Source of the DNA: Actinomycetota bacterium | Lineage (GTDB): Bacteria > Actinomycetota > Geothermincolia > Geothermincolales > RBG-13-55-18 | Length of the DNA stretch: 64,000 nucleotides | Reading direction: 5' to 3' | Assembly (NCBI GenBank): GCA_034188985.1 | Contig: JAXHVT010000023.1 | Coordinates: 62,005 to 126,004 of the forward strand | Shown: in pieces, positions 3,637-30,769 of the stretch | How the letters are laid out: each line of letters begins with the position of its first letter | How positions within the stretch are numbered: position 1 is the stretch's first letter | The notes under the pieces: generated by a model | What the model was told of the DNA's origin: nothing | What the model saw: the letters and a program-made list of their open reading frames with translations, nothing else | Databases searched by the model: none | Made by a program: the position numbers and the translations under genes

Positions 3637-3650
3637 TGACGTTTACGTCA
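3637..3650. promoter_or_regulatory. Perfect palindrome TGACGTTTACGTCA downstream of wecB
   Basis: 14-nt inverted repeat seen directly, followed by a GC-rich hairpin (CCGGCcgtGCCGG). Possible terminator or regulator site. Confidence 0.25.
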
Positions 3651-4597: not shown

Positions 4598-5015
4598 ACC
4601 GATCTGGAGGCTTCTCGATCATCTCAGGGAGGTTCTTGGCGAGCTCTCGAGGCTGCATGCGTGGGGAGCGGCGGATCTCCGGGAGCAGCGGGATTTCAAG
4701 GAGGAGAGAGCCCTTGAGCGCTGCCTTTACCTGGCCATCCAGGACGTGCTGGATATCGGTTCCCACATCGTTTCCTCGCTGTCTCTGGGGATGCCCGAGT
4801 CCTACCGGGACATCGTGGATAAGCTGGGCGGCGAGGGGGTAGTCCCCATGGAGCTGGTGGAGCGCTTGAGGGAGCTGGCCTCCTTCAGGGACGTCCTGGA
4901 GCACGGGTACCTGGCGCTCGATGCCTCCCAGGTCCGCGAATATCTTGAGCGGGGTGGAGACATGGAGGAATTCGCCCGCTGCGTGGTGGACTTTCTCGAT
5001 GACCGCGGGACTTAA
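4587..5015 (+). CDS. hepT: HepT-like HEPN toxin (DUF86), start codon uncertain
   Basis: Rx4HxY HEPN motif (FRDVLEHGY). ORF track gives 4746-5015 from an internal GTG. The same frame is open back to 4569 and encodes a HepT-like N-terminus (IWRLLDHLREVLGELSRLHAWGAADLREQRDFKEERALERCLYLAIQD). That stretch has no in-frame ATG/GTG/TTG. It overlaps the mntA-like stop at 4595-4597. Confidence 0.55.
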   Translation: MNAKPIWRLLDHLREVLGELSRLHAWGAADLREQRDFKEERALERCLYLAIQDVLDIGSHIVSSLSLGMPESYRDIVDKLGGEGVVPMELVERLRELASFRDVLEHGYLALDASQVREYLERGGDMEEFARCVVDFLDDRGT

Positions 5016-8833: not shown

Positions 8834-9702
8834 ACCTGGCTCTGATCATCGTCAACTACAACACCAGGGAAGATCTGCGCAAGTGCCTGCTGTCCCTGCG
8901 TGAAAAGCTGGACGAACCGTATACCGTGGTGGTTGACAACGGGTCTAGCGACGGCAGCAGGGAGATGGTCCTTGAGGATTTTCCCTGGGTCCGGTTGGTG
9001 GACAACCCCGGCAATCCCGGCTACGCTTCCGCCTGCAACCGGGGCCTGGCGGAGACGACCCAGCCCTACGTGCTCATACTCAACAGCGACGTGGAGTTCG
9101 AGGAGAACGGGCTGCGGGAAGTCCTGGCCTACCTGGAGCAAAACGAGGACGTGGGGGTCCTGGGACCCCTGGTCCTCAACAGCGACGGCTCCGTTCAGAT
9201 GTCCTGCCGGCGCTTTCCCTCCATGCGCCAGAACGTGGTCCACGGCTTCCTGGGGGATATCTGGCCCGACAATCGCCTCACCCGCTCCTACCAGATGAAG
9301 GAGCTCGAGCGGGACCGGCCCTGCGAGGTGGACTGGGTATCCGGCGCGGCCATATTTCTCAGGCGCAGCGCCGTCCGCGAGGTTGGCGGTTTCGACGAGG
9401 ACTATTTCATGTACGTGGAGGACGTGGACATCTGCTGGCGCCTGGCCCGGGCGGGTTTCAGGACGGTGTTCCACCCCGCCTTCAGCCTGGTCCATCACAT
9501 AGGCAGGACCAGCTCGCAGCAGTCCGTTCGTATGCTCTACCAGCACCACCGCAGCATGTACATTTTCTTCCGCCGCAGGTACGAGGGGTGGAGGGGTGCG
9601 GCGATGGCACCCGTGGTGATGGCCGGGCTGGCCGGCAGGTTCCTGCTTTCCCTGCTCATCCAGAGGTTACGAGCCCGGAGAGAAAGGGTGGGAGGGTCTT
9701 GA
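8830..9702 (+). CDS. Glycosyltransferase family 2 (rhamnosyltransferase-like)
   Basis: MNLALIIVNYNTREDLRKCL...VVVDNGSSDGS...DVDICWR; WbbL/GT2-like. Its ATG overlaps the previous stop (ATGA). Confidence 0.8.
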   Translation: MNLALIIVNYNTREDLRKCLLSLREKLDEPYTVVVDNGSSDGSREMVLEDFPWVRLVDNPGNPGYASACNRGLAETTQPYVLILNSDVEFEENGLREVLAYLEQNEDVGVLGPLVLNSDGSVQMSCRRFPSMRQNVVHGFLGDIWPDNRLTRSYQMKELERDRPCEVDWVSGAAIFLRRSAVREVGGFDEDYFMYVEDVDICWRLARAGFRTVFHPAFSLVHHIGRTSSQQSVRMLYQHHRSMYIFFRRRYEGWRGAAMAPVVMAGLAGRFLLSLLIQRLRARRERVGGS

Positions 9703-11906
9703 TCGCCCTCAAGGCCCTGGCCCTGGCGGCGTTCGTATTCGTCCCGGGGTGGTTGGCCGCGTCCCTTCTCGACGGCACCTGGGGTTGGCTGGATAACCGG
9801 GACAGGCTGTTTCTGGCTTTATGCCTGGGGGCCGGCGTGGTTTCCGCGGCGGCCCTGGCCCTCTCCCTGGCCTCCACCTACAGCCTGCCCAGGTTGCTTC
9901 TCCTGGTGGGTTTCGCCAGCGCCCTGCTGGTTATCGCTGCAGGGAAAAAGATATCCTGGATTAGGCGGGTACGGCCCGGTGACGTCCTCCTCGTCATCCT
10001 ATTCGTCATCGTAGGCCTTATCCTCTTCTCCCCACCCGGCCGCACCGTCTTCGGCTGGTCGGACGTGGGCATCTACCCTAATATATCCGCCAACGTGGTG
10101 CGGGAGGGGGGAGAAGTCATGGAGGCGACGACGGTGAGGGAGGTGTCACCCGAGCACCGCGAGCTTTTGTACATGCGGAACGACAACCCCGACGTTTCCT
10201 ACGAAGCCTACGAGAACAAAGCCTTTTTTATAACGGATTACGACAGTGGAAGGGTTATTCCCCAGTTCTACTTCCTCTGGCCGGCGTTTATGGCCGTCTT
10301 CGCCTCTTTCCTGGGATTGGAGGCGCAATTCTGGGCCGTAACGGCGATGGGGATCCTGGCCCTGATGGGGATCTATCTCCTGGCCCACAGGTTTCTGGGC
10401 TGGAGGTGGGGGTTGGCCGTCACCGTGCTGGGTGCGTTGTCGCCCCTGATGATCTATTTCACCCGCTATGCGTCGACGGAGATGATGAACATGGCCTTCT
10501 TCATCCCCGGGGCCTTTTGCCTGGTGGGGTACCTGCGGGCTGAGGGCGAGGGCATGAGGAGAACGGGTATGCGGCTGACAGTGGCCGCGTCCTTCTTTTT
10601 CACGCTGTGTTTTCTGTGCCGCATCGACTTCCTGCTCGTGCTCATCCCCATAGGCTTGAGCTATCTGGGAAGGCGGGTTTATAACGGCCTGTCAAGGGTC
10701 GACTGGTGGTTCCTGGGCCTGACCCTGGCCGGCGCGGTGCTCGCCGTCCTGGTGGGGGTGGTATATTCCGCGCCGTACTTCTATTCCATACTGGGCTCAT
10801 TTGCTAGTTTCCGGGATTTCATTTTCAATCCCTTCGCCCTGGCCTTCCTGGTGATAGCAATCGTCTTCATATTCGCACCTGGATTGAGGGGGGCGGCGAG
10901 GCGGCTGGCTGCCGCCCGCGGTCTTCTGCTGGCCGTTTTCTGGCTGGCGCTTGCAGGCGGCTTTATATTTCTATATTTCGTGCGGCCGTCCGGCGGGGAC
11001 CCGGTCATCGAGTACGGCATAATCAATCCCATCCAGGGCTCGTCCTACGTAAGCCAGACCATGGTGAGGTGGGGATGGTATTTCTCCTTCGTGGGCACCC
11101 TGGCCATATTCGCCGGCTACGGTCTGTGGTTTACACGGCGCAGGAGATTCGACCATATCACTGTGGGTATGATAGGGTTCGTTTTCACGCTGGTATACAG
11201 CTGGAGTATGCGCTGCACCCCCATGCATATTCTCACCATGCGACGCCTGGTTCCGGTTGTTCTGCCCATGGCGGTGATCATGATCGCCTATGCCCTGAAA
11301 AGCCTGGTGGAGGGTGCGAGCCGTGTCTCGAGGCGCGGATCGTGGGGGACGTGGACCGCCAGGCTGGCCGCCGCGGCCGTGCTGTTCTATCTCGTATGCT
11401 ACCTGGCGAATGCCTCCATACCCATAATGGGCCTGGAGGAGGGAGGCAACCAGTTGGAGCTTTGCGGGGAGATAGCGCGGGAGGCCGGGGAGGATGCCGT
11501 CGTGCTCATGGATTTCAACCTGGGCGATCTGTTCGGCCCACCGCTGCGCTGTTTCTACGGCGTGGAGAACGGGTGGATAATGGACAACGGGGATATGGAC
11601 ACGGAGGATTTCCGGGGACTGCTCGGCGACCTGGGATTCCCGAACAGGAAGGTGTGCATACTGTGGCGCCCCGGGTTGTCGGGAGAGCACGTGCCCCTTC
11701 CCGATAGCCTGGGCTACGATCTCGAGGGCGAATATGTTTCTAGGGAGGAGATGCTGGAGAAGAGCTTCGAGCACCGGCCGGACCGGAGGGAATACGAGCA
11801 AGAGGAGATATGGCTGCTGCGGTTGAAAGAGGAATACGGGGAGGGTGACGTGCCCAGCGGCGGCCTGGAGGCGCGCGGCCGGAATCTCGAGAATGCCCGC
11901 AGCTGA
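9699..11906 (+). CDS. Large polytopic membrane protein (~735 aa, >=12 TM), GT-C-like candidate glycosyltransferase/polymerase
   Basis: TTG start with a GGGAGGG SD, overlapping the upstream stop (TTGA). There are many hydrophobic helices, plus a large loop after TM3-4 and a C-terminal soluble domain. No confident family assignment. Confidence 0.55.
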   Translation: MIALKALALAAFVFVPGWLAASLLDGTWGWLDNRDRLFLALCLGAGVVSAAALALSLASTYSLPRLLLLVGFASALLVIAAGKKISWIRRVRPGDVLLVILFVIVGLILFSPPGRTVFGWSDVGIYPNISANVVREGGEVMEATTVREVSPEHRELLYMRNDNPDVSYEAYENKAFFITDYDSGRVIPQFYFLWPAFMAVFASFLGLEAQFWAVTAMGILALMGIYLLAHRFLGWRWGLAVTVLGALSPLMIYFTRYASTEMMNMAFFIPGAFCLVGYLRAEGEGMRRTGMRLTVAASFFFTLCFLCRIDFLLVLIPIGLSYLGRRVYNGLSRVDWWFLGLTLAGAVLAVLVGVVYSAPYFYSILGSFASFRDFIFNPFALAFLVIAIVFIFAPGLRGAARRLAAARGLLLAVFWLALAGGFIFLYFVRPSGGDPVIEYGIINPIQGSSYVSQTMVRWGWYFSFVGTLAIFAGYGLWFTRRRRFDHITVGMIGFVFTLVYSWSMRCTPMHILTMRRLVPVVLPMAVIMIAYALKSLVEGASRVSRRGSWGTWTARLAAAAVLFYLVCYLANASIPIMGLEEGGNQLELCGEIAREAGEDAVVLMDFNLGDLFGPPLRCFYGVENGWIMDNGDMDTEDFRGLLGDLGFPNRKVCILWRPGLSGEHVPLPDSLGYDLEGEYVSREEMLEKSFEHRPDRREYEQEEIWLLRLKEEYGEGDVPSGGLEARGRNLENARS

Positions 11907-11957
11907 TCCGGGGGGATGAGAGAGCGTGGGCTTCCCCGAGGCTGGAGATGGGATTAT

Positions 11958-13310
11958 ATGGGACGGAAGGGCGGTTTTTCCGTAAACCTGGTGCTCAACG
12001 TTCTCCTGGCCGCGGCCATCGCTTTGGCCCTGTGGGGATTCGCGGCCGACGTCGACAATACCCTGGATTACGGCGGCGTCGACTTGAGAAACCGGGTCGT
12101 AGGCGCCCGGGTAATGCTGGAGGACCAGGATCCCTACTACTATAAGTGGAGCGAGGGTCAGCCCTATACCCTCCTGGACCCCATCGACAACCTTGAGAAT
12201 CCCGTCTCCAGGATAACGGTTACCCCTACGGCCTTGATGCTGCACGCGCCTTTCGCGTGTATCCCCTACCGGGCCCAGAGGATCGCCTGGCTGGTGGGGC
12301 AATGGCTGCTGCTGCTGGCGAGCATCCTCCTCTTCGCGTCTCGTGCGGACAGCGGGATCAAGCGCAAGATTATATGGATTATCGGCCTGTTTTTCTCCGC
12401 CACGTATATATGGCGTTTTCACGTCGAGAGAGGCCAGATGTATATCCTCTACGTTTTTCTTATAGCCCTGTCCTTTTGGGTGGCGGACGGTTCGAGCAGG
12501 TATTCCGGTTTCGTGGGGGGGGTGGTGCTCGGCATCGCGGTCAGCCTGAGGCCCACGCTTGTGGTCATGGCCATACCCATATTGATCTACAGGAAGTGGT
12601 CGCTGGTGCTGGGGGTGGTCGCCGGGATGGTCATCTTCGTATCCCTCTCCCTGGCCGTTTTCGGGCTTCCCGCGTGGAGAAGCTATGCCTCGGCCATGCG
12701 CTATCATCAGAAACCGAACCTGGGAGAGGCGATCATGGAGAGCTTCGACCACCACGATGTCACCATCGAGGGGATGGACAACATCGATGACTACCTGCCC
12801 TTCCCGAATGTCAACACCTCGCTGCAATATACCTTCAGGCGCGCCTTCGACGTTAAAGTCTCCTCCACCGCCTTTCTCGTGGCGCTCTTCTTGATAACGC
12901 TGCTGATGTCCGTTTACCTGTTACGGTACCGCGAAGCCAGGCTTTCGCTGAGTGCGATCTTCGTAATCGGCTCGACAATGATGCTGGTGGCCGACTTCTT
13001 TCTACCGGCCATCAAGGCCTATTACTCCGATATCATGTGGTTGGTGCCCCTGGCGTTTGTCATCATCGAGGGGGACAAGCTGCTGTCCGTGAGCAGGATT
13101 ATCATCGGAACCTGCCTGTTTCTGCTTGTTACAGGGTTGTTTCTTTCCTTCTCCGTTTTGTGGGCCGGCTACGACGTCCTGCTGGGCGAGTGGTGTATTA
13201 TATTGTTTCTAATAGTGGTTTCGTGGTTCCTGCCGAGGTCGTACCGGGGTGCTACCGGGCCGGATAGCGAGGTGAGTGGGTACGGGCTGGAGACGAGCGG
13301 TGGCCCTTGA
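11958..13310 (+). CDS. Polytopic membrane protein (GT87/DUF2029-like or GT-C) with DPYYY first-loop motif
   Basis: 451 aa. TM1 is followed by the loop ...VMLEDQDPYYYKWSEGQPY..., then ~10 further TM segments. Confidence 0.55.
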   Translation: MGRKGGFSVNLVLNVLLAAAIALALWGFAADVDNTLDYGGVDLRNRVVGARVMLEDQDPYYYKWSEGQPYTLLDPIDNLENPVSRITVTPTALMLHAPFACIPYRAQRIAWLVGQWLLLLASILLFASRADSGIKRKIIWIIGLFFSATYIWRFHVERGQMYILYVFLIALSFWVADGSSRYSGFVGGVVLGIAVSLRPTLVVMAIPILIYRKWSLVLGVVAGMVIFVSLSLAVFGLPAWRSYASAMRYHQKPNLGEAIMESFDHHDVTIEGMDNIDDYLPFPNVNTSLQYTFRRAFDVKVSSTAFLVALFLITLLMSVYLLRYREARLSLSAIFVIGSTMMLVADFFLPAIKAYYSDIMWLVPLAFVIIEGDKLLSVSRIIIGTCLFLLVTGLFLSFSVLWAGYDVLLGEWCIILFLIVVSWFLPRSYRGATGPDSEVSGYGLETSGGP

Positions 13311-13457
13311 GGCCGGTGACCGAGGTCTTATATAAGGGTTAAAACCAGGCGCTCGACTCCAGGCGGCGGGGTTTGGCAATATGATTCGGGAAAGCGTTGT
13401 TCAGTAACGGATAAGCCGCATTGCCGGCGGGTTTATATACGGTGGTGAAAAGAGGAT

Positions 13458-14948
13458 ATGGTGATGTCCGGTTATCCCAGGTGGCGAAGGGCCAGGTTTG
13501 CCGTCACCATGCTGATCACCCTGGCGGTGATCGTTTTATTCCTGGTATTGATCTTCAAGAACGTGGCCCCCTTTGGGGCGTCGGTCGAATACCATATCGA
13601 TCTGGAAACGGGCGTCGGCGACAAAGCCTTGCCGTCTCCCCTGGAGCCATCGGCCGCCTTGGGGGTGGATGAAAACGGGGTAGCCTACCAGGTACCCCAG
13701 AGCATGATGACGAGCGATTTGTTGACCTTCGAACTCGAGATCCCCTACGAGAATTTCGATACCGCCGAGCTGACTATCAGGTACCAGGGTGATCCCGAGG
13801 AGTTCCTGTTCGGCCTCAGGGGGGATAAGGAGAGCGAGTATCGGTATAAGCCCATACACAACAGGTCCTTGAACGAGTTGGACTGGTTCAATACGGAGGA
13901 TGCCGGTATCACCCTGTGGGAGAGGCAGGAGGATTACGCGAGCGTCGAGGAGTTCATAAGCGATCCCCTGGTGACCTCGAGCGAAGACGGACAGGAGGCT
14001 GGTCGCGCTCTCGTAGCCAGCTATTACTACGAGGTCGAACAGCCTTACCCGGAGATCGACGCTTCCGGAATCGACAGCGGCACGCGGGTCGGATCGTTAC
14101 TGAGGGGATTGCATGTTTTCTACACCGTAGTGGGCGTGGAACCACTCAGCTTCTCCTTCGACAAGAGGGAGCTGAACTGGAAAGAGGGCCCGGATCCCCT
14201 GGGTGTATTCGTTTATTCCGGCTCGGAGCTGATATGGTCCACGAGTATACCCGATGACGGGGATGAATTCGAGAGCGGCGTCATATCGCCCGCCGTGGAG
14301 TTCGACCTCACTCTTCCGGACCTGCCGGAGGGAGTATACAGGATCGAGCTGTTCTGCGACACCGATGTGATAATCGAGAACTTGAGAGCCACTCAAGGAT
14401 ACCTGAGCTTCGTGGACAAGATATTCGTGGCCGATCACGAACTCTACGAAATCGCCCCGAGCAGGCCGCAGACTGTATTCACCAACGCCGAGGCACTGTA
14501 TGTATGGACCTGGCACCCCGAGGCCTATCAGACCATAGGCGTGGACGGGGAAGAGGAGATAGTGATGGAAGAGGCGGGAATCAAGACATTCGCCTTATTG
14601 CCATATGGTGTCAAGGAATTGCGGATGGAGATGGGCGATCTGTCTTTTCTCTCTAAGGAAAGCAGCTTCGCCTTTTCCAGGGCATCGTTTTTCGATCCCT
14701 ATCCCGTGAAGGTAAAGGAATACAGCAGGGAGATCCTATATTCCGATATCGAGTACGTGATCGCGGACTACACTGTCCCGGACGAAGAGGGGGAGTGGCT
14801 GACCAGAAAGTTGACCTTCGATCTGGAGGATATGGAGATCGAGGACAATAAACTCAGATGCACGCTATGGGCACCGAACCTGGCGGTTCTTGATGGAGAG
14901 ATCGTGCTCGGTTCCCTCGATATAAAGCTGCAAAAGGATGGATCGTGA
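13458..14948 (+). CDS. Membrane-anchored acidic extracytoplasmic protein, unknown function
   Basis: 496 aa. A single N-terminal TM (FAVTMLITLAVIVLFLVLIF) is followed by a ~460-aa Asp/Glu-rich domain without recognisable motifs. Good SD (AAGAGGA). Confidence 0.5.
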   Translation: MVMSGYPRWRRARFAVTMLITLAVIVLFLVLIFKNVAPFGASVEYHIDLETGVGDKALPSPLEPSAALGVDENGVAYQVPQSMMTSDLLTFELEIPYENFDTAELTIRYQGDPEEFLFGLRGDKESEYRYKPIHNRSLNELDWFNTEDAGITLWERQEDYASVEEFISDPLVTSSEDGQEAGRALVASYYYEVEQPYPEIDASGIDSGTRVGSLLRGLHVFYTVVGVEPLSFSFDKRELNWKEGPDPLGVFVYSGSELIWSTSIPDDGDEFESGVISPAVEFDLTLPDLPEGVYRIELFCDTDVIIENLRATQGYLSFVDKIFVADHELYEIAPSRPQTVFTNAEALYVWTWHPEAYQTIGVDGEEEIVMEEAGIKTFALLPYGVKELRMEMGDLSFLSKESSFAFSRASFFDPYPVKVKEYSREILYSDIEYVIADYTVPDEEGEWLTRKLTFDLEDMEIEDNKLRCTLWAPNLAVLDGEIVLGSLDIKLQKDGS

Positions 14949-15418
14949 TGGAGACGGGAGCGGACGACATGGCCTCCGGGCCGCGAGACGGCGGCCCGGC
15001 CGGTGGCGGACTCGCATATTATCTGAGGGGATCCCTCAAGTTTCTGCTCTACATAAACTGGAACGTCTTCGCGGCCTCCTTGAACGCGTATATCGTCCTG
15101 ATAGTGCTGGACAAGCTGAAATATGGTTTTGCCAGCTTTTTCTTCAACATGAATATATTGCTGGCCGTAGTCGTGGTCACGGGCTGCGTGGCCGTTTTAA
15201 CTTCGAGCCTTACGAGAGATAGGGGAACCGCGACGACCCCGGCCCTATCCTGGAACAAGGTCTGTATTGCGGTGGTATTTCTGGGCGTAGCCGGGGCGAT
15301 CATGATCTATTTCGGATCCGCCACGACGGGCGCGACCTTGATCGTGTCGCTGGTGGTGGGAGGGGTATTGATATACGTGCTGGCTCTGCTGCTGATTTTG
15401 GACCAGGCTCTATCCTGA
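14948..15418 (+). CDS. Small 4-TM membrane protein (GtrA-like flippase candidate)
   Basis: 156 aa and hydrophobic. Its ATG overlaps the upstream stop (GTGATG). Confidence 0.45.
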   Translation: METGADDMASGPRDGGPAGGGLAYYLRGSLKFLLYINWNVFAASLNAYIVLIVLDKLKYGFASFFFNMNILLAVVVVTGCVAVLTSSLTRDRGTATTPALSWNKVCIAVVFLGVAGAIMIYFGSATTGATLIVSLVVGGVLIYVLALLLILDQALS

Positions 15419-15435
15419 TTTCCGATCCCGCTCGT

Positions 15436-15449
15436 TTTGACGTCCGCAT
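15436..15449. promoter_or_regulatory. 14-mer TTTGACGTCCGCAT, exact copy of the motif at 19974-19987
   Basis: Exact 14-nt identity between two intergenic regions, each upstream of a glycosyltransferase operon. Contains the palindromic core GACGTC. Confidence 0.35.
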
Positions 15450-15683
15450 AAACACGCCGCGTCCTTTCCCGCCCCTTTGCGACGGTCCGGCACTTTGCCG
15501 TCACGAGCATGATGGTGGGGGTGTCTTCACAATCGGCCGCTCGCATGCGGAATCTTGACTGATCCATATCCGAACCGTAGGATGATATTTGGCATAATGG
15601 TAGGGATCAAAATTCAATGGACAGCTGTTTCCAGGCCAGCGTGATAGGGAAACAACAAAGGCTTCGTAGACAAGGGAGATGCG

Positions 15684-16853
15684 ATGAACGTCGTTATTAT
15701 GCAGAATGTTAGTCTGTGCACCCATCTGGCGCTGTCGACGTATCTGAGGAGCATCGCCAAGTACCTGGCGGCACGCGAGGAAGTGAACCTGTACCTGGTG
15801 GTACAGGGCCCGGTCGCGACCCTGCCGGAAGTGCCGCCGCGCAATATTTGCTTTATCGACGCCGATACCTATTCAATCAAGTCCAATTTCAGGTTCTCCT
15901 GGCTGTCGTATAAGGCCCTCAAGGAGCTGAACAGGGAGTCGAGTATAGACCTGATCCATTGCCTGTACCCCAATTCCTCGTTGATGGGAGCGGCCATGTT
16001 CAAGCACTTGTACTCGCCGGACGTGAAGATAATCTACGATGTCCGGAGCCCCTGGATAGAGGCGAGTATCGGCAGGTTGTCCCTGGGCCTGGAATCGATA
16101 CTGTACCGCAAGATCGCCTATGCCGGCGAGGGCTTCCTGGGCCGCTTCGTGGACGGGTACATATTCATCACCAGGGGGCTGAAGGATATCTACGAGGAGA
16201 TGCTGAAGGGAGACCTGGAGCCCTCGATACTCATCCCCTCGGGCGTGGACCTCGACATCTTCGCGCGCATGGATTCGTCATCGGTCAGGGACAGTTACCG
16301 TATCGATGATGACGATATCCTGATAGGATACGTGGGGGTCCTGTCGAGGGAGAGAGAGCTGGATTTCTCCATCAGGGCGCTGCACGAGCTGAGCGATGAA
16401 GATGATAGATATAAATTGATGTTCGTAGGTCGTGGAGACGACCAGGACAGGCTGCGGCATATCTCCAGGGAGCTGGGCATCCAGGAGAAGATCATCTTCA
16501 CCGGGAGCGTGGATTACGAAATGGTTCCACAGTTCATCTCCGCCTTCGATTTCGGCTTATGCCATCTTCCGGACAAGCTGTTTTTCCGCCACAGCTTTCC
16601 CATGAAAGTCCTTGAGTACATCGCCTGCGGAACGCCGGTTCTCGCGTCCAACATAGCGGCACACCGCGATATCGCCGAGGATATCCCCATGAGCTTGTAC
16701 GGCAACGGTAGCCCGTCCGAACTGGCGCGGAAGGTGATGGAACTCAATGGCGACAACGCGGAGGCAGAGGATAACATACACATGTTCGCCTGGCCCAATA
16801 TAGCCAGCGACCTGGTTGAATACTACAGGGATATGACGGGATCCCAAGCCTGA
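15684..16853 (+). CDS. Glycosyltransferase family 4
   Basis: GT-B architecture. ...FPMKVLEYIACGTPVLAS is the E-x7-E motif. Confidence 0.8.
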   Translation: MNVVIMQNVSLCTHLALSTYLRSIAKYLAAREEVNLYLVVQGPVATLPEVPPRNICFIDADTYSIKSNFRFSWLSYKALKELNRESSIDLIHCLYPNSSLMGAAMFKHLYSPDVKIIYDVRSPWIEASIGRLSLGLESILYRKIAYAGEGFLGRFVDGYIFITRGLKDIYEEMLKGDLEPSILIPSGVDLDIFARMDSSSVRDSYRIDDDDILIGYVGVLSRERELDFSIRALHELSDEDDRYKLMFVGRGDDQDRLRHISRELGIQEKIIFTGSVDYEMVPQFISAFDFGLCHLPDKLFFRHSFPMKVLEYIACGTPVLASNIAAHRDIAEDIPMSLYGNGSPSELARKVMELNGDNAEAEDNIHMFAWPNIASDLVEYYRDMTGSQA

Positions 16854-16859
16854 TGCCAA

Positions 16860-18350
16860 ATGGATGCGGTTGAAGGGCTGAGACCCGAGGAAAAACCCGG
16901 ATTACCACCCTTATTGAGGCGGATTCCCGCTGATACATGTATATATGTCGTCCTGGTTCTCGTCCTGGTAGCATTCTCGGTATTCGTCCTCATCGAGGTA
17001 TACAGCGTGGACGGCCTTTTCTCATACGACCCTTACTATCACATGCACCTGTCCGAGTTGATGGAACGGGAAGGGGATCTGGTAACCGAGATCCAGTTCT
17101 ACGAAACCGAAGAGGCTCCTCAATACGTGAGCAGCATGAGATCGCTCACGGCTCTGATACACGAATATACCGGCATTTCGTATTTAAATATCTATAAGGG
17201 GTTCGGTCTTTTCTGTAGGATTTTCACCGCGCTGGCCCTGTTCATCACCGCCGCTTATTTCCTGCGAAGCAAGAAATACGCCCTGATCGCGGTGATCCTC
17301 TTTCTGTCGTCGCCGTACATCATTTACAGGAGCTTCATCACCTTCCCTGAGAACCTGGTTATGCCCTTCCATATCCTCATCTTCTATTCCCTGATAAAGA
17401 GCCTGAGGGAGAAAAAGGCGGACCATATTCTGCCCGTATTGATCGCCGCTTCTCTTTACATCCATTACAGGTCGATTATCGTGCCGGCGGTTCTGGTACT
17501 GGTATTTCTGCTCTTCTGGAGGAGGATAAGATACACCGTCGGTCTGCTGGCGAGCATGGCGATTCTCGCCGCCCCCATACTGGTAAGCGCGGTGGAGCAA
17601 TACGTGGCATATCTGCAGGTGAACGTAGGACCCAGCGCGGCCTGGAAACCTTATACAGTGGCCGATCCCAGCTATACCGTCCCCACGCTCAGTGGTTATC
17701 AATCTCAACTCGGAGCCCTTCTATTGCTCTTCTCCCTGCTGGGCATCCCCTTTCTCATACGCAAGATCAACGCCCAGAAATTCCTGCTGCTGGTATGGCT
17801 GGTATTCACTTTCGCGCTTACCAGGGGAAAGGCGATCGGCCTGTATGTACCCCCGGACAGGATGCTGGCGTATCTCTGCATGCCGGCCGCGCTGACGGCC
17901 GCGGTATTCTTCAAGGAGATAGTCGGACTTGAGGTTCTCACCTCGCGGGCCAGATACGTATTCGTGGCGGCGGTAACGGTGGTCCTGATCTTCTTCTTAT
18001 TCGTAAACCTGCCCTCCGTACACGGCTGGGTCGGCGTGGGAGCGGACGAGCTGAACACGTCCGAATGGCTCAACGACAACGTGTCGCAGGACGCGGTGAT
18101 TCTGCCCTTCGACCTGGACCTTATAACCATCGGTCTCGAGAGCTATAAGAACGTGGACGGCTTGAGCTATGGCGATTGGACGGAGATCTTCAGCCATCCG
18201 CTGGGCGTGAAGGACAGACTGAGGCAGTTGTATCCCGACAAGCGGATATATATCGTGACCGGAAACAAGGTTTTCTCGCTACATGACGCGGAGATCGTCT
18301 TCAGCGAGGGCGATATGAGAGTCTATACTTACTGGGATGAAGGAACATGA
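16860..18350 (+). CDS. GT-C fold polytopic membrane protein with STT3/AglB-like first-loop motif (candidate polyprenol-linked glycan transferase)
   Basis: 496 aa. TM1 is followed by ...YSVDGLFSYDPYYHMHLSELMEREGD... (compare eukaryotic STT3 HEFDPYFNYR). About 11 TM follow, then a ~110-aa C-terminal soluble domain. No WWDYG motif. Confidence 0.55.
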   Translation: MDAVEGLRPEEKPGLPPLLRRIPADTCIYVVLVLVLVAFSVFVLIEVYSVDGLFSYDPYYHMHLSELMEREGDLVTEIQFYETEEAPQYVSSMRSLTALIHEYTGISYLNIYKGFGLFCRIFTALALFITAAYFLRSKKYALIAVILFLSSPYIIYRSFITFPENLVMPFHILIFYSLIKSLREKKADHILPVLIAASLYIHYRSIIVPAVLVLVFLLFWRRIRYTVGLLASMAILAAPILVSAVEQYVAYLQVNVGPSAAWKPYTVADPSYTVPTLSGYQSQLGALLLLFSLLGIPFLIRKINAQKFLLLVWLVFTFALTRGKAIGLYVPPDRMLAYLCMPAALTAAVFFKEIVGLEVLTSRARYVFVAAVTVVLIFFLFVNLPSVHGWVGVGADELNTSEWLNDNVSQDAVILPFDLDLITIGLESYKNVDGLSYGDWTEIFSHPLGVKDRLRQLYPDKRIYIVTGNKVFSLHDAEIVFSEGDMRVYTYWDEGT

Positions 18351-18441
18351 ATACCCGCCAGCCTGTAGATGGGTTCCATACGAGGCGGTCCGGCGTGGAC
18401 GGCTGCATGGAAAGGCGCGTTATTAATCGGGGAGGACAGCC

Positions 18442-19584
18442 TTGAAGGTACTCTTCGTAACGAGTGAGCTGTATCCCTGGAAGACGGGCGGAGTGCAGAA
18501 CGTGGTTTATAACCTCGCCGCCCGGCTGGGGGAAGAGATCGATCTGGAGATGATCTGTATTCACCTCGGCGACGGCGAAGAGGGCCTGGACGGCTACGGC
18601 GACGGAGTCACCTTTCGCTTTATCGAGGACCGGGGAGCCGGCCCCCTCAAGTACCTGTACCGCAACCTGGCCTACATCCGGGCCGACGGTGGCCTGGAGG
18701 ATTTCGATATCGTGCATTTCCATATCCTCCCAGGCGCTAACTGCGCGTTTCTTCCCCGCCATATCAAAAGGCGTTCGGAGGCCAGGCTCCTGCTCTCCGT
18801 GTATGATTGGATTCCCGATGAGCTGGAGTTCTATGATACGGGCGAGAAGGTGAGGCATCTTATGCATTGGGCGGCCGCGAAGCGGGGTCTCAAGAATTTC
18901 GACGGCTATATCGTGAACAGTTCATACGTAAAGGACATTGTCGAATCCTACGGCCTTACCGGGGTGACGATAATGCCCAACGGTATCGATATGGATGAAT
19001 GGAGGACCTCGAGAAGGCTGGCCTTGCGAGGATCGACGAACATCCTGTTCTGGGGACGGCTGTTTCCCAAGAAAGGCGTGGATCACCTTATCAAGGCCTT
19101 TGCCGTGGTGACGCGGCGGTACAGGGACATTCATCTCTATATCGGAGGAGAGGGCCCCCACGAATGTCACTACCGGAAGCTATGCCGCCGTCTAGGCCTG
19201 GAAAACAGGACGACCTTTCTGGGAGGGTTGAGCAAGGATGACCTGAAGGCTTACCTGAATTCATGTGACTTCTGCGTCTTTCCTTCCATCTACGAGGGTT
19301 TCGGGATAGCGGTACTGGAGGCCATGGCGGCCTCCAGACCGGTCATCGTCTCCGAGAGGGGTGGGCAGGTCGATTTCGCCAGGCATGCATTCAACGCCTT
19401 ACTGGTCGACCTCGACAAGCCCGACCAGTTGCCCCACGCGATCCAGAGCCTGGCCACGGATGAGCGCCTGAGGCGGGAATTGGGCGAAAACGCCGCGAGG
19501 ACCGCCACCGAGTATAACTGGCGCGATATCGCCGGGCGTTATGTCGAACTGTACGAGAGCATGTTATCGAAGGGTGGGATATAA
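18442..19584 (+). CDS. Glycosyltransferase family 4
   Basis: TTG start with a GGGGAGGA SD. MKVLFVTSELYPWKTGGVQNVVYNLA...FPSIYEGFGIAVLEAMAASRPVIVS. Confidence 0.8.
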   Translation: MKVLFVTSELYPWKTGGVQNVVYNLAARLGEEIDLEMICIHLGDGEEGLDGYGDGVTFRFIEDRGAGPLKYLYRNLAYIRADGGLEDFDIVHFHILPGANCAFLPRHIKRRSEARLLLSVYDWIPDELEFYDTGEKVRHLMHWAAAKRGLKNFDGYIVNSSYVKDIVESYGLTGVTIMPNGIDMDEWRTSRRLALRGSTNILFWGRLFPKKGVDHLIKAFAVVTRRYRDIHLYIGGEGPHECHYRKLCRRLGLENRTTFLGGLSKDDLKAYLNSCDFCVFPSIYEGFGIAVLEAMAASRPVIVSERGGQVDFARHAFNALLVDLDKPDQLPHAIQSLATDERLRRELGENAARTATEYNWRDIAGRYVELYESMLSKGGI

Positions 19585-19586
19585 AT

Positions 19587-19913
19587 ATGGCGTTTCTCGA
19601 CGGCCTCAGGTCCATAGCGGCACTGCTGTTTCTGATTTTCATTCCGGGCTTCGCCTGGACCTTGGTCTTTTTTAAAGAGAGGGAGGTGGACATTCTGGAG
19701 AGGTTCGTCTATTCCATCGCCCTCTCCATCGCCCTGATGGCCATAGCCCTGTTCTTCGCGAACCGGCTCCTGGGCGTGAGGATCAACGTTCCCAACTCCT
19801 TTGCAATCGTCGTGGTGCTGACCGCGATACCGTTCATCCATAGATTTTTAAGCAAGCGGGGACACTACGACAGATTGCGCCTGAGGAGGTCGCGGAACGG
19901 CTTGAAGACCTGA
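19587..19913 (+). CDS. Small 3-TM membrane protein, unknown
   Basis: 108 aa and hydrophobic. Its ATG sits 2 nt after the upstream stop. Confidence 0.45.
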   Translation: MAFLDGLRSIAALLFLIFIPGFAWTLVFFKEREVDILERFVYSIALSIALMAIALFFANRLLGVRINVPNSFAIVVVLTAIPFIHRFLSKRGHYDRLRLRRSRNGLKT

Positions 19914-19973
19914 GGTATTCATGCCACGATAGCTTTGCGTCGACTCCGTTATTCTCGCGGGAATCAGGTTATC

Positions 19974-20002
19974 TTTGACGTCCGCATTTGGGAATCTATA
20001 AA
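19974..20002 (+). promoter_or_regulatory. Promoter TTGACG-16nt-TATAAA containing the shared 14-mer TTTGACGTCCGCAT
   Basis: The -35 TTGACG (19975-19980) and -10 TATAAA (19997-20002) lie upstream of the GtrB-like gene. Confidence 0.45.
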
Positions 20003-20058
20003 ATGGGTGGCGAATTTATGAGATATCTAGCGGAATCAGTTGATTAGGGGGTATTTTC

Positions 20059-20919
20059 TTGAAGGTAAGCCTGGTGATACCGGCCTACAACGAGGAAAAG
20101 GCCATCCCCGGCGTCATAAGGGAAGCCGTGGAGGTCTTGGAGGCCAGCCCGTACGAATGGGAGATAGTAGTGGTGGATGACGGATCCAGTGATGGCACCG
20201 CGGATATCGCGGTCTCCTTCCCCGAGGTGAACCTGGTGAGACACCCGTACAACATGGGAGGCGGCAGGGCTCGAAACTCCGGGATCGACAAGGCCACGGG
20301 GGACGTGGTCGTGATAACGGATGGAGATGGCACCTATCCCATGCAGGACATCCCCAGACTGGTGGAGGAGCTGGAAGACTGCGACATGGTCGTCGGGGCC
20401 CGCACCAGGGAGGCGGGGACGATGAAAGCGTTGCGGATCCCCGCCAAGTTCGTTATCCGCAAGCTGGCGGAGTTCATAAGTGGTTCCAAGATTCCGGACC
20501 TGAACTCCGGCATGAGAGCCATGCGCAAGGAGATCATGCTTCCATATTTACACATGCTGCCGCCCGGCCATTCCTGGGTGAGCACCATAACCCTGATTCT
20601 CTTGAACAGCGGTCGCAGCGTCAAATACGTGCCTATCGCCTACTATCCCCGCAAGGGCAAATCGACCTTTCATCCCATAAGGGATACTGGAAGCTATCTC
20701 ATGACCATATTCCGTACAATAACCTGGTTCAGCCCGCTGAAGATATTCCTGCCGCTGGGCCTGCTGCTGCTTCTGGGGGGCTTCGCAAAGCTGATAGCTG
20801 ATTTCGTGCGATATAACTGGTCCGTTACCCCGAGCACGGTGATCCTGCTGTTGGGAGGCTTGCAGATACTCGTTTTGGGCTTGATAGCCGATCTGATCGT
20901 AAAAAGGAGTGGGCCATGA
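20059..20919 (+). CDS. GT2 polyprenyl-phosphate hexose synthase (GtrB/DPM1/ArnC-like) with C-terminal TM helices
   Basis: TTG start. MKVSLVIPAYNEEKAIPGVIRE...VVVDDGSSDGT...VITDGDGTYP plus two C-terminal TM segments is the typical Und-P/Dol-P sugar synthase layout. Confidence 0.8.
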   Translation: MKVSLVIPAYNEEKAIPGVIREAVEVLEASPYEWEIVVVDDGSSDGTADIAVSFPEVNLVRHPYNMGGGRARNSGIDKATGDVVVITDGDGTYPMQDIPRLVEELEDCDMVVGARTREAGTMKALRIPAKFVIRKLAEFISGSKIPDLNSGMRAMRKEIMLPYLHMLPPGHSWVSTITLILLNSGRSVKYVPIAYYPRKGKSTFHPIRDTGSYLMTIFRTITWFSPLKIFLPLGLLLLLGGFAKLIADFVRYNWSVTPSTVILLLGGLQILVLGLIADLIVKRSGP

Positions 20920-21890
20920 GCGATAAAGTACTCATTACCGGAGCGGACGGTTTCGTGGGAAGGCATCTGGCGGCGTATCTTGCCGACGAGGTGGGGACGG
21001 AGGTGTTGGGCCTCGACCTGAAACCGGCCAGGTTCCCCGAGCCCTGGGACAGGTGTGGCTACGGGGAGTGCGACGTTCTGGATCGCGACAAGGTCTTCTC
21101 CTACGTGCATGGATTCAAGCCGGATTACGTGTTCCACCTGGCCGCCCAGAGCTCCGTACGCCTGTCCTGGGAGGAACCCCAGCTCACATACAATATCGCC
21201 CTTACCGGGCAGGCCAACATCTTCGACGCGGTAAGGGATACGGGCAGGGATGCGGTTCTGCACGTAGCCTGCTCGGCCGAGGAATACGGCCGGGTGAGCG
21301 AGGACGATCTCCCCATAACCGAGCGGCAGCCCTTGAGGCCGGCGAGCCCCTATGCCCTGAGCAAGGTGATGCAGTATTACCATGCCGTTTTCAACCACCA
21401 GGCTTACGGTACCCGGGTCGTTATCACCCGAGCCTTCAACCAGACCGGCCCGGGGCAGGCCCCCGAGTTCGTGGTCTCCGACTTCGCCAGGCAGATAGCC
21501 GAGGCGGAGGCGGGCGACAGGACCCCGGTAATAAGGGTGGGCAACCTGGAGGCCAGAAGGGACTTCTCCGACGTGCGCGACCTGGTGGGCGCCTACTGGC
21601 TCCTGGTCCAGAAGGGGAAGCCGGGGGAGGTGTACAACGTATGCTCCGGCTGCGATTATTCCATAAGGGAGATCCTGGACATGCTGCTGTCCCACAGCAA
21701 GGTTCCCATCAGGGTGGAGGTGGACCCCACGCGTATGCGCAAGGCGGATATCCCCGTTCTGAAGGGGGACAACACCAAGATGAGGGAGCTGGTGGACTGG
21801 GCCCCGGTGTGCGCCCTGGACAGGACCCTGGAGGATGTACTGGAATGGTGGCGGGAGGAGATACGGTCGAGGAAGGAAGGCGGCAAATAG
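20916..21890 (+). CDS. NAD(P)-dependent extended SDR, GDP-4-keto-6-deoxy-D-mannose reductase (Rmd)-like
   Basis: ITGADGFVGRHL and a YxxxK motif (YALSK). Homologous to the gmd-like gene downstream (shared FN.TGP....FV...F.RQ.A block). ATGA overlap with the upstream stop. Confidence 0.65.
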   Translation: MSDKVLITGADGFVGRHLAAYLADEVGTEVLGLDLKPARFPEPWDRCGYGECDVLDRDKVFSYVHGFKPDYVFHLAAQSSVRLSWEEPQLTYNIALTGQANIFDAVRDTGRDAVLHVACSAEEYGRVSEDDLPITERQPLRPASPYALSKVMQYYHAVFNHQAYGTRVVITRAFNQTGPGQAPEFVVSDFARQIAEAEAGDRTPVIRVGNLEARRDFSDVRDLVGAYWLLVQKGKPGEVYNVCSGCDYSIREILDMLLSHSKVPIRVEVDPTRMRKADIPVLKGDNTKMRELVDWAPVCALDRTLEDVLEWWREEIRSRKEGGK

Positions 21891-21994
21891 CCCGCGGGGC
21901 ACGGCGCGTCCGGACCGGAGGCCCGCCGCCTGTAGACCGGGATGGAGAGCACCTACGACGGCGGAGAGGCGGAGACTGATACGGAGGTCTATAA

Positions 21995-23107
21995 ATGCAG
22001 GCTGTGATACTGGTAGGGGGGCAGGGAACGCGGCTGAGGCCGCTCACTCTGACCGTCCCCAAACCCATGCTGCCCCTGATGAACAGACCCTTTCTCGAGT
22101 TCCAGGTCCAGCTGTGCCTGCGGCACGGCATCTCCGACATCATTATGAGCACGGCCTACCTGCCAGAGGTCTTCGAGGAGCATTTCGGGGACGGCAGCGG
22201 CCTGGGGGCGAAGATGACCTACGTCACCGAGGACGAGCCCCTGGATACGTGCGGCGCGGTCAAGAACGTGGAGGAGTATATCAAGGGCCCTTTCCTGGTG
22301 TTCAACGGTGATATCCTGACCGATCTCGACCTGACCAACCTTATCGCCTATCACCGCGAGAAGGGCTCGAAAGCCACCATCTCGCTGACCAGGGTGGAGG
22401 ATCCCACCGCCTACGGACTGGTGCCCCTGGACCGGTCCGGGCGTATAAATGAGTTTCTGGAGAAGCCGAGCTGGGAACAGGTGGTCACCGACCTGATCAA
22501 CGCCGGGACCTACGTGATGGAACCCGAGCTCCTGGACAGAGTGCCGCGAGGTGAGCGCTACTCCTTCGAGCGGCAGCTTTTTCCCCAGCTGCTGGAGGAC
22601 GGGGTGCCCATGTACGGCTTCGCAACCGATGCCTACTGGATGGACATCGGCACGCCGGCCAAGTACCTGCAGGCGCATTACGACATACTGGGCCGGATGA
22701 TCCCCTTCGATTTCGCGGGAGACGAGATAAAGCCCTCGGTCTGGGCGGAGGAGGGGGCGGAGATATCCCCCGAGGCCTCCGTTTTCGGCCCCACCATAAT
22801 CGGCTCCGGATGCCGTATAGCTCCCCATGCCATCGTATCCAGCCGATGTGTATTGGGTCCCGATTGCGAGCTGGGTGAGGGCGTGCACGCGGAGGGGGTG
22901 GTGATGCACTCCGGCTGCAAGGTGGGAGAGGAGAGCGTATTGAGCCGCTGCGTCATCTCCAGCGACGTGGAGATCGAGGAGAAGGTACACGTCGCCGATC
23001 AGTCCGTGCTGGGCGGGAGAGTAGTGGTGGAGAGGGAAAACGACCTGAAATGCGGCATCAGGGTATGGCCGGAGGCCCATATCCCGCCCTCCACATTGCA
23101 CTTCTAG
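21995..23107 (+). CDS. manC: Mannose-1-phosphate guanylyltransferase (NDP-sugar pyrophosphorylase with LbH C-domain)
   Basis: MQAVILVGGQGTRLRPLT...PKPMLPL... N-terminal NTP-transferase signature, plus C-terminal hexapeptide repeats. Confidence 0.8.
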   Translation: MQAVILVGGQGTRLRPLTLTVPKPMLPLMNRPFLEFQVQLCLRHGISDIIMSTAYLPEVFEEHFGDGSGLGAKMTYVTEDEPLDTCGAVKNVEEYIKGPFLVFNGDILTDLDLTNLIAYHREKGSKATISLTRVEDPTAYGLVPLDRSGRINEFLEKPSWEQVVTDLINAGTYVMEPELLDRVPRGERYSFERQLFPQLLEDGVPMYGFATDAYWMDIGTPAKYLQAHYDILGRMIPFDFAGDEIKPSVWAEEGAEISPEASVFGPTIIGSGCRIAPHAIVSSRCVLGPDCELGEGVHAEGVVMHSGCKVGEESVLSRCVISSDVEIEEKVHVADQSVLGGRVVVERENDLKCGIRVWPEAHIPPSTLHF

Positions 23108-23196
23108 CGGGCTCTGGAAAAAGAGGCGGTTTACAGTCATAATATTACGGATGATGTAAGAGACTGCGTATTGATACGCCGACAAAGGAGGAAGGC

Positions 23197-24150
23197 TTGC
23201 GGATTCTTATAACGGGAATAACCGGCTTTGTGGGCAGCCATCTGGCGGAATATACTTTTAGCAAGGACGGCGTAGAGGTTTACGGGACCGTCCGCTGGAG
23301 ATCCCGTATGGAGAACGTCGAGCATATCCTGGACCGGATTAATCTCGTCGACTGCGACCTGCGCGATGCCGCGGCGGTCAGGAACACTCTGGACGAGGTG
23401 AGGCCGGATTTTATCTTTCACCTGGCGGCGCAGAGCTTCGTGCCCACCTCCTGGAAGGCGCCGGAGGAGACCCTGACCACCAACATCATCTCCGAGCTGC
23501 ACCTGCTGGAGGCCATGCGCGAGTCGAAGCTGGATTGCCGCATACAGGTGGCAGGCTCCAGCGAGGAATACGGCCTGGTACGCGAGGAAGAAGCCCCGAT
23601 TACCGAGGACAACCCGCTGCGGCCTTTGTCCCCCTACGCGGTGAGCAAGGTGGCCCAGGACTTGCTGGCTTACCAGTACCATAAGAGTTACGGCCTCTTT
23701 ACCGTGCGCACCCGCGCCTTCAACCACACCGGCCCCAGGCGTGGACACGTCTTCGTCACCAGCAACTTCACCCGCCAGGTGGCCATGATAGAGCGGGGAA
23801 AGAAAGAACCGGTTATCGAGGTGGGCAACCTGGAGGCCAGGAGGGACTTCACGGACGTCAGGGACATCGTGCGCGCCTACTGGCTCAGCCTGGAGAAGGG
23901 GGAGCCGGGGGAGGTATATAATATCGGCTCCGGCAAGGCCATCACCATCCGGGAGCTCCTGGACCTCATCCTCTCCATGACCGACGTGGAGATAGAGGTG
24001 AGACAGGACCCCGCGCGCATGCGACCCTCGGACGTCATGCTCCTGCTCACCGACTACGGCAAGTTCAACAGGGCCACGGGATGGAAGCCCGAGATACCCC
24101 TGGATAAAACGGTCGGGGACCTCCTCGACTACTGGCGCGAGAGGGTCTGA
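23197..24150 (+). CDS. gmd: GDP-mannose 4,6-dehydratase (short form)
   Basis: TTG start. ITGITGFVGSHL...VRWRSRMENVEHI...FNHTGPRRGHVFVTSNFTRQVA matches the Gmd block [22 protein letters not shown]. Confidence 0.7.
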   Translation: MRILITGITGFVGSHLAEYTFSKDGVEVYGTVRWRSRMENVEHILDRINLVDCDLRDAAAVRNTLDEVRPDFIFHLAAQSFVPTSWKAPEETLTTNIISELHLLEAMRESKLDCRIQVAGSSEEYGLVREEEAPITEDNPLRPLSPYAVSKVAQDLLAYQYHKSYGLFTVRTRAFNHTGPRRGHVFVTSNFTRQVAMIERGKKEPVIEVGNLEARRDFTDVRDIVRAYWLSLEKGEPGEVYNIGSGKAITIRELLDLILSMTDVEIEVRQDPARMRPSDVMLLLTDYGKFNRATGWKPEIPLDKTVGDLLDYWRERV

Positions 24151-26988: not shown

Positions 26989-27149
26989 ATCTCACCCCGT
27001 CGCTCCATACTCCCCGTTTATCGACGTTTGTCGATTATGATATCACGAGGGGGACCTTAAGGTCGTAGGCGGGGGTTTCTTGAGATAGTCGGGCCGTGGA
27101 ATTATACTTCTAGGGATATGGACGAGAGGGATAAACCAAGGAGTGTGAT

Positions 27150-30724: not shown

Positions 30725-30769
30725 AAAACATCGGAAGATGGGGTCAGGCACTGACATCGGACATTTTCG
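30725..30769. repeat. Dispersed palindromic repeat family, copy A
   Basis: aaaacatcggaagatggggtcaggcactgacatcggacattttcg shares the GTCAGAAGACGGGGTCA...CATCGGACATTTTCG core with copies at 41.8, 50.3 and 59.7 kb. Confidence 0.5.

Follow-up and report, generated by a model that had tools for sequence, protein, structure and literature searches.

An exact 14-base repeat in an actinobacterial glycan locus: part of a conserved promoter at one copy and probably a coincidental match at the other

Introduction

Two glycosyltransferase units in one gene cluster of an actinobacterial genome are each preceded by an exact copy of the same 14-base sequence, TTTGACGTCCGCAT. Are these two copies one functional element? 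The preliminary description of this DNA had proposed a site for a common regulator, with GACGTC as its core, or, as the other option, duplicated promoter modules.

Results

Both copies were found where they had been placed, on the forward strand of the window (the whole 64-kb stretch of DNA that was analyzed, 59.5% G+C), as direct repeats 4538 nt apart. The genes downstream are indeed glycosyltransferases, one of family GT4 and one of family GT2 with C-terminal transmembrane (TM) segments, and the distance of 235 nt from the end of copy 1 to the GT4 start codon was borne out. The features surrounding the copies are as follows.

14945-15418, forward strand: multi-TM open reading frame (ORF) of 157 aa, unmatched in Pfam, whose stop codon comes before copy 1
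15436-15449, forward strand: copy 1 of TTTGACGTCCGCAT, 18 nt after the TGA (15416-15418) of the 157-aa ORF
15684-16853, forward strand: GT4 glycosyltransferase gene, 389 aa, ATG start at 15684
19587-19913, forward strand: small membrane ORF of 108 aa, weakly matching DUF1616, with its stop codon 61 nt upstream of copy 2
19974-19987, forward strand: copy 2 of TTTGACGTCCGCAT
20059-20919, forward strand: GT2 gene, 286 aa, TTG start; polyprenyl-phosphate glycosyltransferase-like, with TM-like segments at the C terminus

No similarity between the copies was found outside the 14 bases on either side, whether by gapped or extended comparison. An identity that ends this abruptly at the detection threshold looks like a chance match, and since the similarity stops at 14 nt, no module has been duplicated. 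The two regions share no RNA structure, and their folds do not differ from those of shuffled sequences (z = +0.38 and +0.01). No T-tract follows either copy and the folds there are no better than shuffles, which leaves no terminator. Rfam returned zero matches for either region even at E values up to 1, and a full-text literature search for TTGACGTC retrieved primers and vectors only. Within the window there are no variants of the 14-mer with one or two mismatches; at three mismatches there are three further matches, so that 5 are observed against 4.0 expected, which fits chance.

How surprising the repeat is depends on the DNA against which it is counted. Exact direct pairs of at least 14 nt number 50 in the window, compared to 11, 18, and 28 in sequences simulated with order-1, order-3, and order-5 Markov models. 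The 14-base identity is most probably a coincidence of the kind that arises dozens of times in a 64-kb window of this G+C content. For intergenic DNA (9.75 kb, a crude estimate), 0.17 pairs would be expected, and the probability of at least one is 0.16. When only the six intergenic gaps of the cluster (841 nt) are shuffled, a shared exact 14-mer appears with a P of ~0.00085, a restriction that was made post hoc. The same 4.8 kb also contains an exact 13-mer pair, many 12- to 14-mers with one mismatch, and a 12-nt perfect inverted pair.

Copy 2 coincides with a recognizable promoter:

19975-20004, forward strand: sigma-70/sigma-A-type promoter, TTGACG-18 nt-TAAAAT; 10 of 12 consensus matches; conserved in seven related upstream regions

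This is the best-scoring forward-strand promoter match of the region. Bases 2 to 7 of the 14-mer form its -35 hexamer (TTGACG at 19975-19980, five of six matches to the consensus), and bases 8 to 14 begin the spacer. Two -10 options stand behind TTGACG, one being TATAAA after 16 nt and the other TAAAAT (19999-20004) after 18 nt. The preliminary description had recognized the -35 upstream of the GtrB-like GT2 gene correctly and had paired it with TATAAA; comparison with relatives picks TAAAAT instead. With this -10, the promoter sits 54 nt before the GT2 start codon, and transcription of the GT2 operon would begin near 20011, assuming that the predicted promoter is active.

The comparison used seven promoters of orthologous or paralogous GT2 genes (74 to 84% amino acid identity), from loci L083, L084, L087 (both paralogues), L093, L094, and L003. 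All seven keep the architecture, with a -35 of TTGAC(C/G) or a near variant, a spacer of 17 to 18 nt, and a -10 of TA(A/G)(A/G)AT, the pair being placed 40 to 66 nt before the start codon. The spacer sequence drifts, but these elements stay in orthologous positions. Bases 7 to 14 of the 14-mer differ in every one of the seven, and the 8 bases following TTTGAC are unlike GTCCGCAT throughout. At the position of GACGTC, the relatives read GACCTC, GACCGC, GACCGG, or GACCAG; since base 7 (G), like the remainder of the 14-mer, varies across all seven, the palindrome is not conserved. In our model, copy 2 is the -35 element of a housekeeping sigma-70/sigma-A-type promoter together with the beginning of its spacer. 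This promoter would start the conserved operon GT2-epimerase-NDP-sugar pyrophosphorylase-epimerase, of which GT2 is the first gene (the third being an NTP transferase), and it stands where a hypervariable glycan-gene region meets the conserved core.

The surroundings of copy 1 differ. At spacings of 16 to 19 nt downstream of its TTGAC, the hexamers are GCGTCC, CGTCCT, GTCCTT, and TCCTTT, none of which fits TAnnnT, and the promoter scan reported no promoter there. No alignable counterpart of copy 1 exists upstream of the GT4 orthologues (L090, L091, L101, L095, L096, and L097), whose upstream regions align with that of this GT4 gene only at the ribosome-binding site and start codon. In L091, the next gene starts 5 nt after the 157-aa gene. 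Closer to the GT4 gene we identified the following.

15545-15551, reverse strand: inverted TCCGCAT (ATGCGGA on the forward strand), 3 nt ahead of the candidate -35 TTGACT
15555-15598, forward strand: GT4 promoter candidates, TTGACT-17-TAGGAT (15555-15583) and an extended -10, TGgCATAAT (15590-15598)

These candidates sit 106 to 150 nt downstream of copy 1, and the GT4 orthologues have comparable -10-like elements at a similar upstream distance. Both copies might be promoters, either as a duplicated module or as sites for an alternative sigma factor whose -35 would be TTGACGTCC, with a non-canonical -10 at copy 1. Copy 1 does contain a perfect TTGAC, and actinobacterial promoters can tolerate weak elements. 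However, the missing -10, the silent scan, and the better candidates at 15555-15598 make this highly improbable, and the proposal of duplicated promoter modules finds no support at copy 1, whose likeness to copy 2 is confined to the 14 bases. We instead suggest that copy 1 is unconstrained intergenic DNA just past the stop codon of a membrane-protein gene and that GT4 is most likely expressed by read-through, from its own proximal promoter around 15555-15598, or by both.

A second possibility is a lineage-specific operator, in which a transcription factor reads GTCCGCAT or the whole 14-mer beside -35 elements and controls the GT4 block together with the GT2 operon. Such a factor would cover the -35 and spacer at copy 2, as a repressor or a class II-type activator; the gap holding copy 1 would offer it two sites, copy 1 and the inverted TCCGCAT, possibly with DNA looping. 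That two gaps of one cluster share an exact 14-mer is in its favor (P of ~0.001 for the cluster gaps only, post hoc). Of the 10 copies of TCCGCAT in the window, 3 fall in the two gaps that hold the repeat, and 2 of these directly flank TTGAC hexamers; the inverted copy at 15545-15551 weakly supports reading TCCGCAT as a half-site. The gaps also have GCGGAATC in common along with a recurring GGAATC, which occurs three times in the 145-nt gap with copy 2 and once beside the inverted TCCGCAT, although these word counts are statistically marginal (P = 0.05 for the copy 2 gap alone and 0.12 for both). As an ECF-type -35, GGAATC was rejected on reading the sequence, as no CGT-type -10 follows at 16 to 18 nt.

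Set against the operator is the symmetry of the site, a dyad of only 6 bp (GACGTC) with no direct-repeat architecture and a left arm (TCTTTGAC or GTTTTGAC) that does not mirror GTCCGCAT. None of the seven related promoters keeps bases 7 to 14, and the nearest candidate -35 lies 106 nt downstream of copy 1. Intergenic DNA shows no enrichment of GACGTC (2 of 18 occurrences, against 2.8 expected) or of TGACGT. The proposed shared site with a GACGTC core is not supported, given the loss of the palindrome in all seven relatives and this lack of enrichment. A wider motif search had been recommended. In the ~70 kb of this genome that was covered (the window plus 6 kb of extra flank), the 14-mer has no further full or near copy. 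TGACGT-N2-ACGTCA has 6 matches at up to two mismatches against 1.1 expected, 4 of them inside genes. The 14-mer itself does not belong to that family, having three mismatches in the second arm as we read it. Related TGACGT palindromes had also been described at two places. The one at 3637-3650, TGACGTTTACGTCA, is present, while near 27020 stands ATCGACGTTTGTCGAT (27020-27035), which lacks TGACGT; as kin of the 14-mer, they are unrelated or absent. There are zero regulator genes within 9588-24150. An RHH protein (3938-4597) and a Ser/Thr kinase (24364-26988) are encoded nearby, with no link to the motif.

Searches of relatives at up to one mismatch did not find the 14-mer in the close relatives L083 to L091 or in a further 175 kb of related loci, a scan that left out the distant L004 to L082. 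JGI metagenomes gave zero matches to the GT4 protein; a 13-sequence profile retrieved 24 loci, all of which lack the 14-mer and none of which is closer than 63%. The closest relatives in the databases searched share 84% (GT2) and 65% (GT4) amino acid identity, a distance at which non-conservation says little about a young, lineage-specific site. Weighing these points, we regard an operator as unlikely and infer that no protein binds the 14-mer.

The copies also flank, as direct repeats, the block at 15684-19913 (GT4, a GT-C-like membrane protein, GT4, and the small membrane protein). They could therefore be remnants of recombination or of indel junctions left at the borders of this block by cassette gain or loss in a mosaic glycan locus, for example, through microhomology deletions or a Campbell-type insertion. 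Relatives do carry extra genes at both junctions, namely, a GT1 gene at the copy 1 gap (L090, L091, and L101) and a GT4-GT2-GT4-flippase block at the copy 2 gap (L084, L090, and L091), so that both copies lie in the two gaps that lack genes present in these loci. However, the block has the same gene order in L090 and L091, both of which are without the repeat, and neither an integrase nor a transposase is found in or beside it. Amino acid identity to L091 is 55 to 57% for the genes left of copy 1 (41% for the 157-aa protein) and 56 to 62% within the block, and this similar divergence gives no sign of a separate history. Searches of both gaps for leftovers of the L091 and L084 genes missing here (blastn-short and tblastx) returned noise only, and the relatives' own gaps contain no analogous junction repeats. 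The sole match of that junction-repeat search was a -10 region common to the promoters of both GT2 paralogues in L087. The genes upstream of GT4 are arranged differently in almost all relatives (L095, L096, and L097), so almost any gap would be a breakpoint, and two independent deletions would not yield identical microhomology. We consider such a remnant quite unlikely.

Discussion

With copy 2 lying in a conserved but ordinary promoter and copy 1 lacking both a promoter and conserved features, the match between them is most likely a coincidence. We therefore lean toward the view that the copies do not form a single functional element, copy 2 being an ordinary promoter part and copy 1 being unconstrained. 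The P of ~0.001 over the six gaps of the cluster, post hoc as it is, is the reason that a lineage-specific operator or a recombination scar keeps some probability. In its broadest form, the 14-mer, or its GTCCGCAT/TCCGCAT part, would be a young, lineage-specific operator or a recombination signal at the borders of exchangeable glycosyltransferase cassettes, tying these boundaries to -35 elements. We judge this rather unlikely. If true, it would be a cassette-border signal in a hypervariable locus for cell-envelope glycans in an uncultured Geothermincolia-like actinobacterium and a handle on the co-regulation or exchange of glycan-cluster cassettes in uncultured Actinomycetota, though still a variant of known themes.

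The solid gain in annotation is a conserved sigma-A-type promoter, located where a mosaic, fast-evolving glycosyltransferase region adjoins a conserved polyprenyl-phosphate-sugar/NDP-sugar operon, in a poorly known actinobacterial lineage whose relatives include Candidatus Solincola. There is a negative lesson as well, in that an exact 14-mer in two intergenic gaps of a 64-kb window of 60% G+C is not, taken alone, evidence of a regulatory motif.

Several known systems resemble parts of this arrangement. Identical direct repeats around a 4.5-kb block at synteny breakpoints recall the repeats that flank cassettes, such as att cores and target-site duplications, but this block lacks a recombinase and terminal inverted repeats and shows no presence/absence polymorphism. 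The eukaryotic CRE, TGACGTCA, is a look-alike only. Dimeric helix-turn-helix (HTH) operators placed over the -35 (class II sites of CRP/FNR and TetR/MarR-type sites) are similar in having a palindrome, here the 6-bp GACGTC, next to or inside the -35. However, known operators of this kind have dyad or direct-repeat symmetry over 12 to 20 bp and recur with degeneracy, whereas the 14-mer has 6-bp symmetry and two identical copies, none degenerate, and its palindrome is lost in the orthologous promoters. JUMPstart/ops elements, which recruit RfaH (LoaP-type NusG paralogues in Gram-positive bacteria), are likewise short sequences that recur upstream of glycan-synthesis units. They lie in the transcribed leader, whereas copy 2 overlaps the -35 and so is not transcribed from its own promoter; the 14-mer is also not conserved across relatives. 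The ops 8-mer, GGCGGTAG, occurs 4 times in the window (3.1 expected), with none near 15436 or 19974. The closest likeness is to the sigma-70/actinobacterial sigma-A housekeeping promoter (TTGACA, 17 ± 1 nt, TATAAT), which copy 2 resembles with nothing unusual and of which copy 1 has only the -35-like half.

Copy number and position of the 14-mer

The 14-mer TTTGACGTCCGCAT occurs exactly twice in the whole window, both times on the + strand, and both copies are present in an independent assembly of the same DNA (Logan run SRR24907504). Variants with one or two mismatches are absent from the window, and the count at three mismatches (5 observed, 4.0 expected) is at chance level. Another 6 kb of flank held no extra copy.

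15436-15449, + strand, copy 1, 18 nt past the TGA stop (15416-15418) of a membrane-protein ORF of 157 aa
19974-19987, + strand, copy 2, starting 61 nt past the stop codon of a membrane ORF of 108 aa

The end of copy 1 lies 235 nt from the ATG of the GT4 gene (15684). Copy 2 contributes the TTGACG (19975-19980) that precedes the GT2 gene (286 aa), whose TTG start codon is at 20059.

Copy 2 promoter and its relatives

Copy 2 had been described as the -35 of a TTGACG-16-TATAAA promoter. We compared it with regions upstream of GT2 orthologues and paralogues (74 to 84% amino acid identity) from related loci L083, L084, L087 (two paralogues), L093, L094, and L003. The -35 is TTGAC(C/G), with a weaker TTTAAT in L094 and TTTGCT in L003. 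All compared regions have a 17- to 18-nt spacer, a -10 of TA(A/G)(A/G)AT, and the promoter 40 to 66 nt before the start codon. This pattern confirms the TTGACG and fixes the window -10 at TAAAAT (19999-20004) with an 18-nt spacer, the same choice as the promoter scan, and not at TATAAA, where the spacer would be 16 nt.

After TTTGAC, the next eight bases read GTCCGCAT in the window and CTCAGTTG, CGCCGCGA, CGGGATGA, CGGGATAA, or CAGCACTA in the relatives, with L094 and L003 more distant. Because these bases differ, the GACGTC palindrome proposed as the core of a shared regulator site is kept at the GT2 promoter in none of the relatives. Judged from these sequence comparisons, copy 2 appears to be a real, conserved promoter with constraint only on its first 6 to 7 bases. 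Downstream, the order GT2-epimerase-NTP transferase-epimerase is kept in all loci compared, while the gene content upstream is different in each; thus, the promoter stands at the border of a conserved operon. Fine-scale footprinting is impossible, since the nearest sequences in the collections searched have 84% (GT2) and 65% (GT4) amino acid identity.

Copy 1 and the GT4 upstream region

We regard a second promoter at copy 1 as very improbable. Sequence inspection found no TAnnnT 16 to 19 nt downstream of copy 1, the promoter scan of the region did not call it, and two better GT4 promoter candidates lie closer to the gene.

15555-15583, candidate GT4 promoter, TTGACT-17-TAGGAT
15590-15598, candidate GT4 promoter element, TGgCATAAT

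The GT4 orthologues have -10-like elements upstream at start-codon distances similar to those of the window candidates; for orthologues with 51 to 65% amino acid identity, the ribosome-binding site and the start codon are the only parts of the upstream regions that align. RNA folds of the copy 1 and copy 2 regions equal those of shuffles, the two regions have no common RNA structure, and an Rfam search gave no match. Copy 1 is without supporting features.

Chance or signal

The window holds 50 exact direct pairs of at least 14 nt versus 11, 18, and 28 in order-1, order-3, and order-5 Markov simulations. In intergenic DNA (9.75 kb, crudely defined), 0.17 pairs are expected (probability of at least one, 0.16) and three are seen, of which one involves a tRNA and another is the longer repeat at 30741-30768 and 41808-41835. 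The 4.8 kb spanning the 14-mers also has many near-repeats, two exact copies of a 13-mer, and a 12-nt inverted pair without mismatch.

A lineage-specific operator is a doubtful alternative. GACGTC, TGACGT, and TTGACG show no notable enrichment between genes. For the six gaps of the cluster alone (841 nt), the probability of sharing at least 14 nt is 0.00085, which prevents a flat dismissal even though the restriction was chosen post hoc (any intergenic pair would have been flagged at the first stage). A weak hint for a site comes from a third TCCGCAT, in inverted orientation at 15545-15551; 3 nt separate it from the candidate TTGACT -35 downstream. GGAATC or GCGGAATC occurs three times within the 145-nt gap that precedes GT2 and once beside the inverted TCCGCAT and candidate GT4 -35; this recurrence is marginal (P = 0.05 for the GT2 gap alone and 0.12 for both gaps).

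15545-15553, GGAATC/GCGGAATC site beside the inverted TCCGCAT
19958-19965, GGAATC/GCGGAATC site
19989-19996, GGAATC/GCGGAATC site
20030-20037, GGAATC/GCGGAATC site

Other palindromes, repeats, and RNAs

Two TGACGT palindromes had been named as related. The one at 3637-3650, TGACGTTTACGTCA, exists, 27 nt beyond the stop codon of the gene at 2195-3610, which is UDP-GlcNAc 2-epimerase-like. It is followed by a second hairpin, CCGGCCGTGCCGG, and 3637-3675 resembles a terminator region more than an operator. The site near 27020 reads ATCGACGTTTGTCGAT and lacks TGACGT. At 27020-27035, an inverted repeat (ATCGAC-GTTT-GTCGAT), possibly an operator, occupies the divergent gap between a Ser/Thr kinase gene (24364-26988, -) and an S-adenosylhomocysteine hydrolase gene (27150-28406, +). 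Internal repeats of 14 to 21 nt, spaced roughly 150 to 465 nt (24618-25619), indicate a putative repetitive C-terminal domain in this kinase. In L084, a direct repeat (16 nt or longer, spacing 114 nt) lies at 11100-11235, in the gap that precedes the AdoHcyase gene.

Within the glycan locus, 3938-5015 encodes a 219-aa ribbon-helix-helix protein together with an 89-aa fragment of a HepT-like RNase. Upstream (3875-3906), a 7-nt inverted repeat (ACACACT...AGTGTGT) adjoining a TATAAT -10 is likely an autoregulatory operator of the ribbon-helix-helix gene.

The + strand intergenic repeat GGTCAGGCACTGACATCGGACATTTTC (30741-30768) and GGCCAGGCGCTTACATCGGACATTTTC (41808-41835) spans 27 nt with three mismatches and an exact 15-mer core. 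It was hit in 0 of 100 shuffles and looks genuine. Each copy directly follows the stop codon of a gene on the + strand. Calculated from its coordinates, the end of the independent Logan contig SRR24907504_8987 falls at 30754, exactly the core start, which suggests a multicopy, assembly-breaking element. The window also has a raiA RNA motif (33701-33928, +, 169.9 bits), a tmRNA (52027-52375, -, tag ADSELALAA), and tRNAs. These RNAs mark the DNA as bacterial, and the raiA RNA and tmRNA helped to place the organism; the source is a MAG of an uncultured member of the Actinomycetota.

Gene order around the repeats

A long cell-envelope glycan locus, mostly on the + strand, extends from about -6000 to 24150 (window G+C, 59.5%). 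It encodes GT2 and GT4 enzymes, GT87, GT-C-like multi-transmembrane proteins, a flippase, epimerases, and NDP-sugar pyrophosphorylases. Candidatus Solincola is among the named relatives of the GT2 protein. Related loci L090, L091, and L101 have the order GT87-508 aa-157 aa-(GT1)-GT4-495 aa-GT4-small membrane protein-(GT4-GT2-GT4-flippase(-))-GT2 and onward, where the blocks in parentheses are missing in the window; L084 also has the second block. The gaps that contain the 14-mers are exactly the two that lack these blocks, so the direct repeats bracket the four-gene block 15684-19913.

This placement would suit a recombination or indel-junction remnant, which we rate as unlikely. An 8803-like GT2 (L095) or a DUF1616-like ORF (L096) lies upstream of GT4 elsewhere; therefore, nearly every gap is a breakpoint somewhere. 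Identity to L091 is similar on both sides of copy 1, at 55 to 57% for the genes to its left (41% for the 157-aa protein) and 56 to 62% in the four-gene block. No recombinase is present among the annotated genes of the locus, remnants of the missing genes are undetectable in the two gaps, and the relatives' gaps have no analogous junction repeats. For these reasons, we do not think that the flanking position is meaningful.

Compared with L084, L090, L091, L095, L096, and L101, the region upstream of the GT2 operon (~9588-20058) is a mosaic, with 40 to 65% protein identity to relatives versus 75 to 82% in the core operon. Taken together, the best reading, which we hold with moderate confidence, is an ordinary conserved sigma-A-type promoter with a coincidental 14-base identity to unconstrained DNA.
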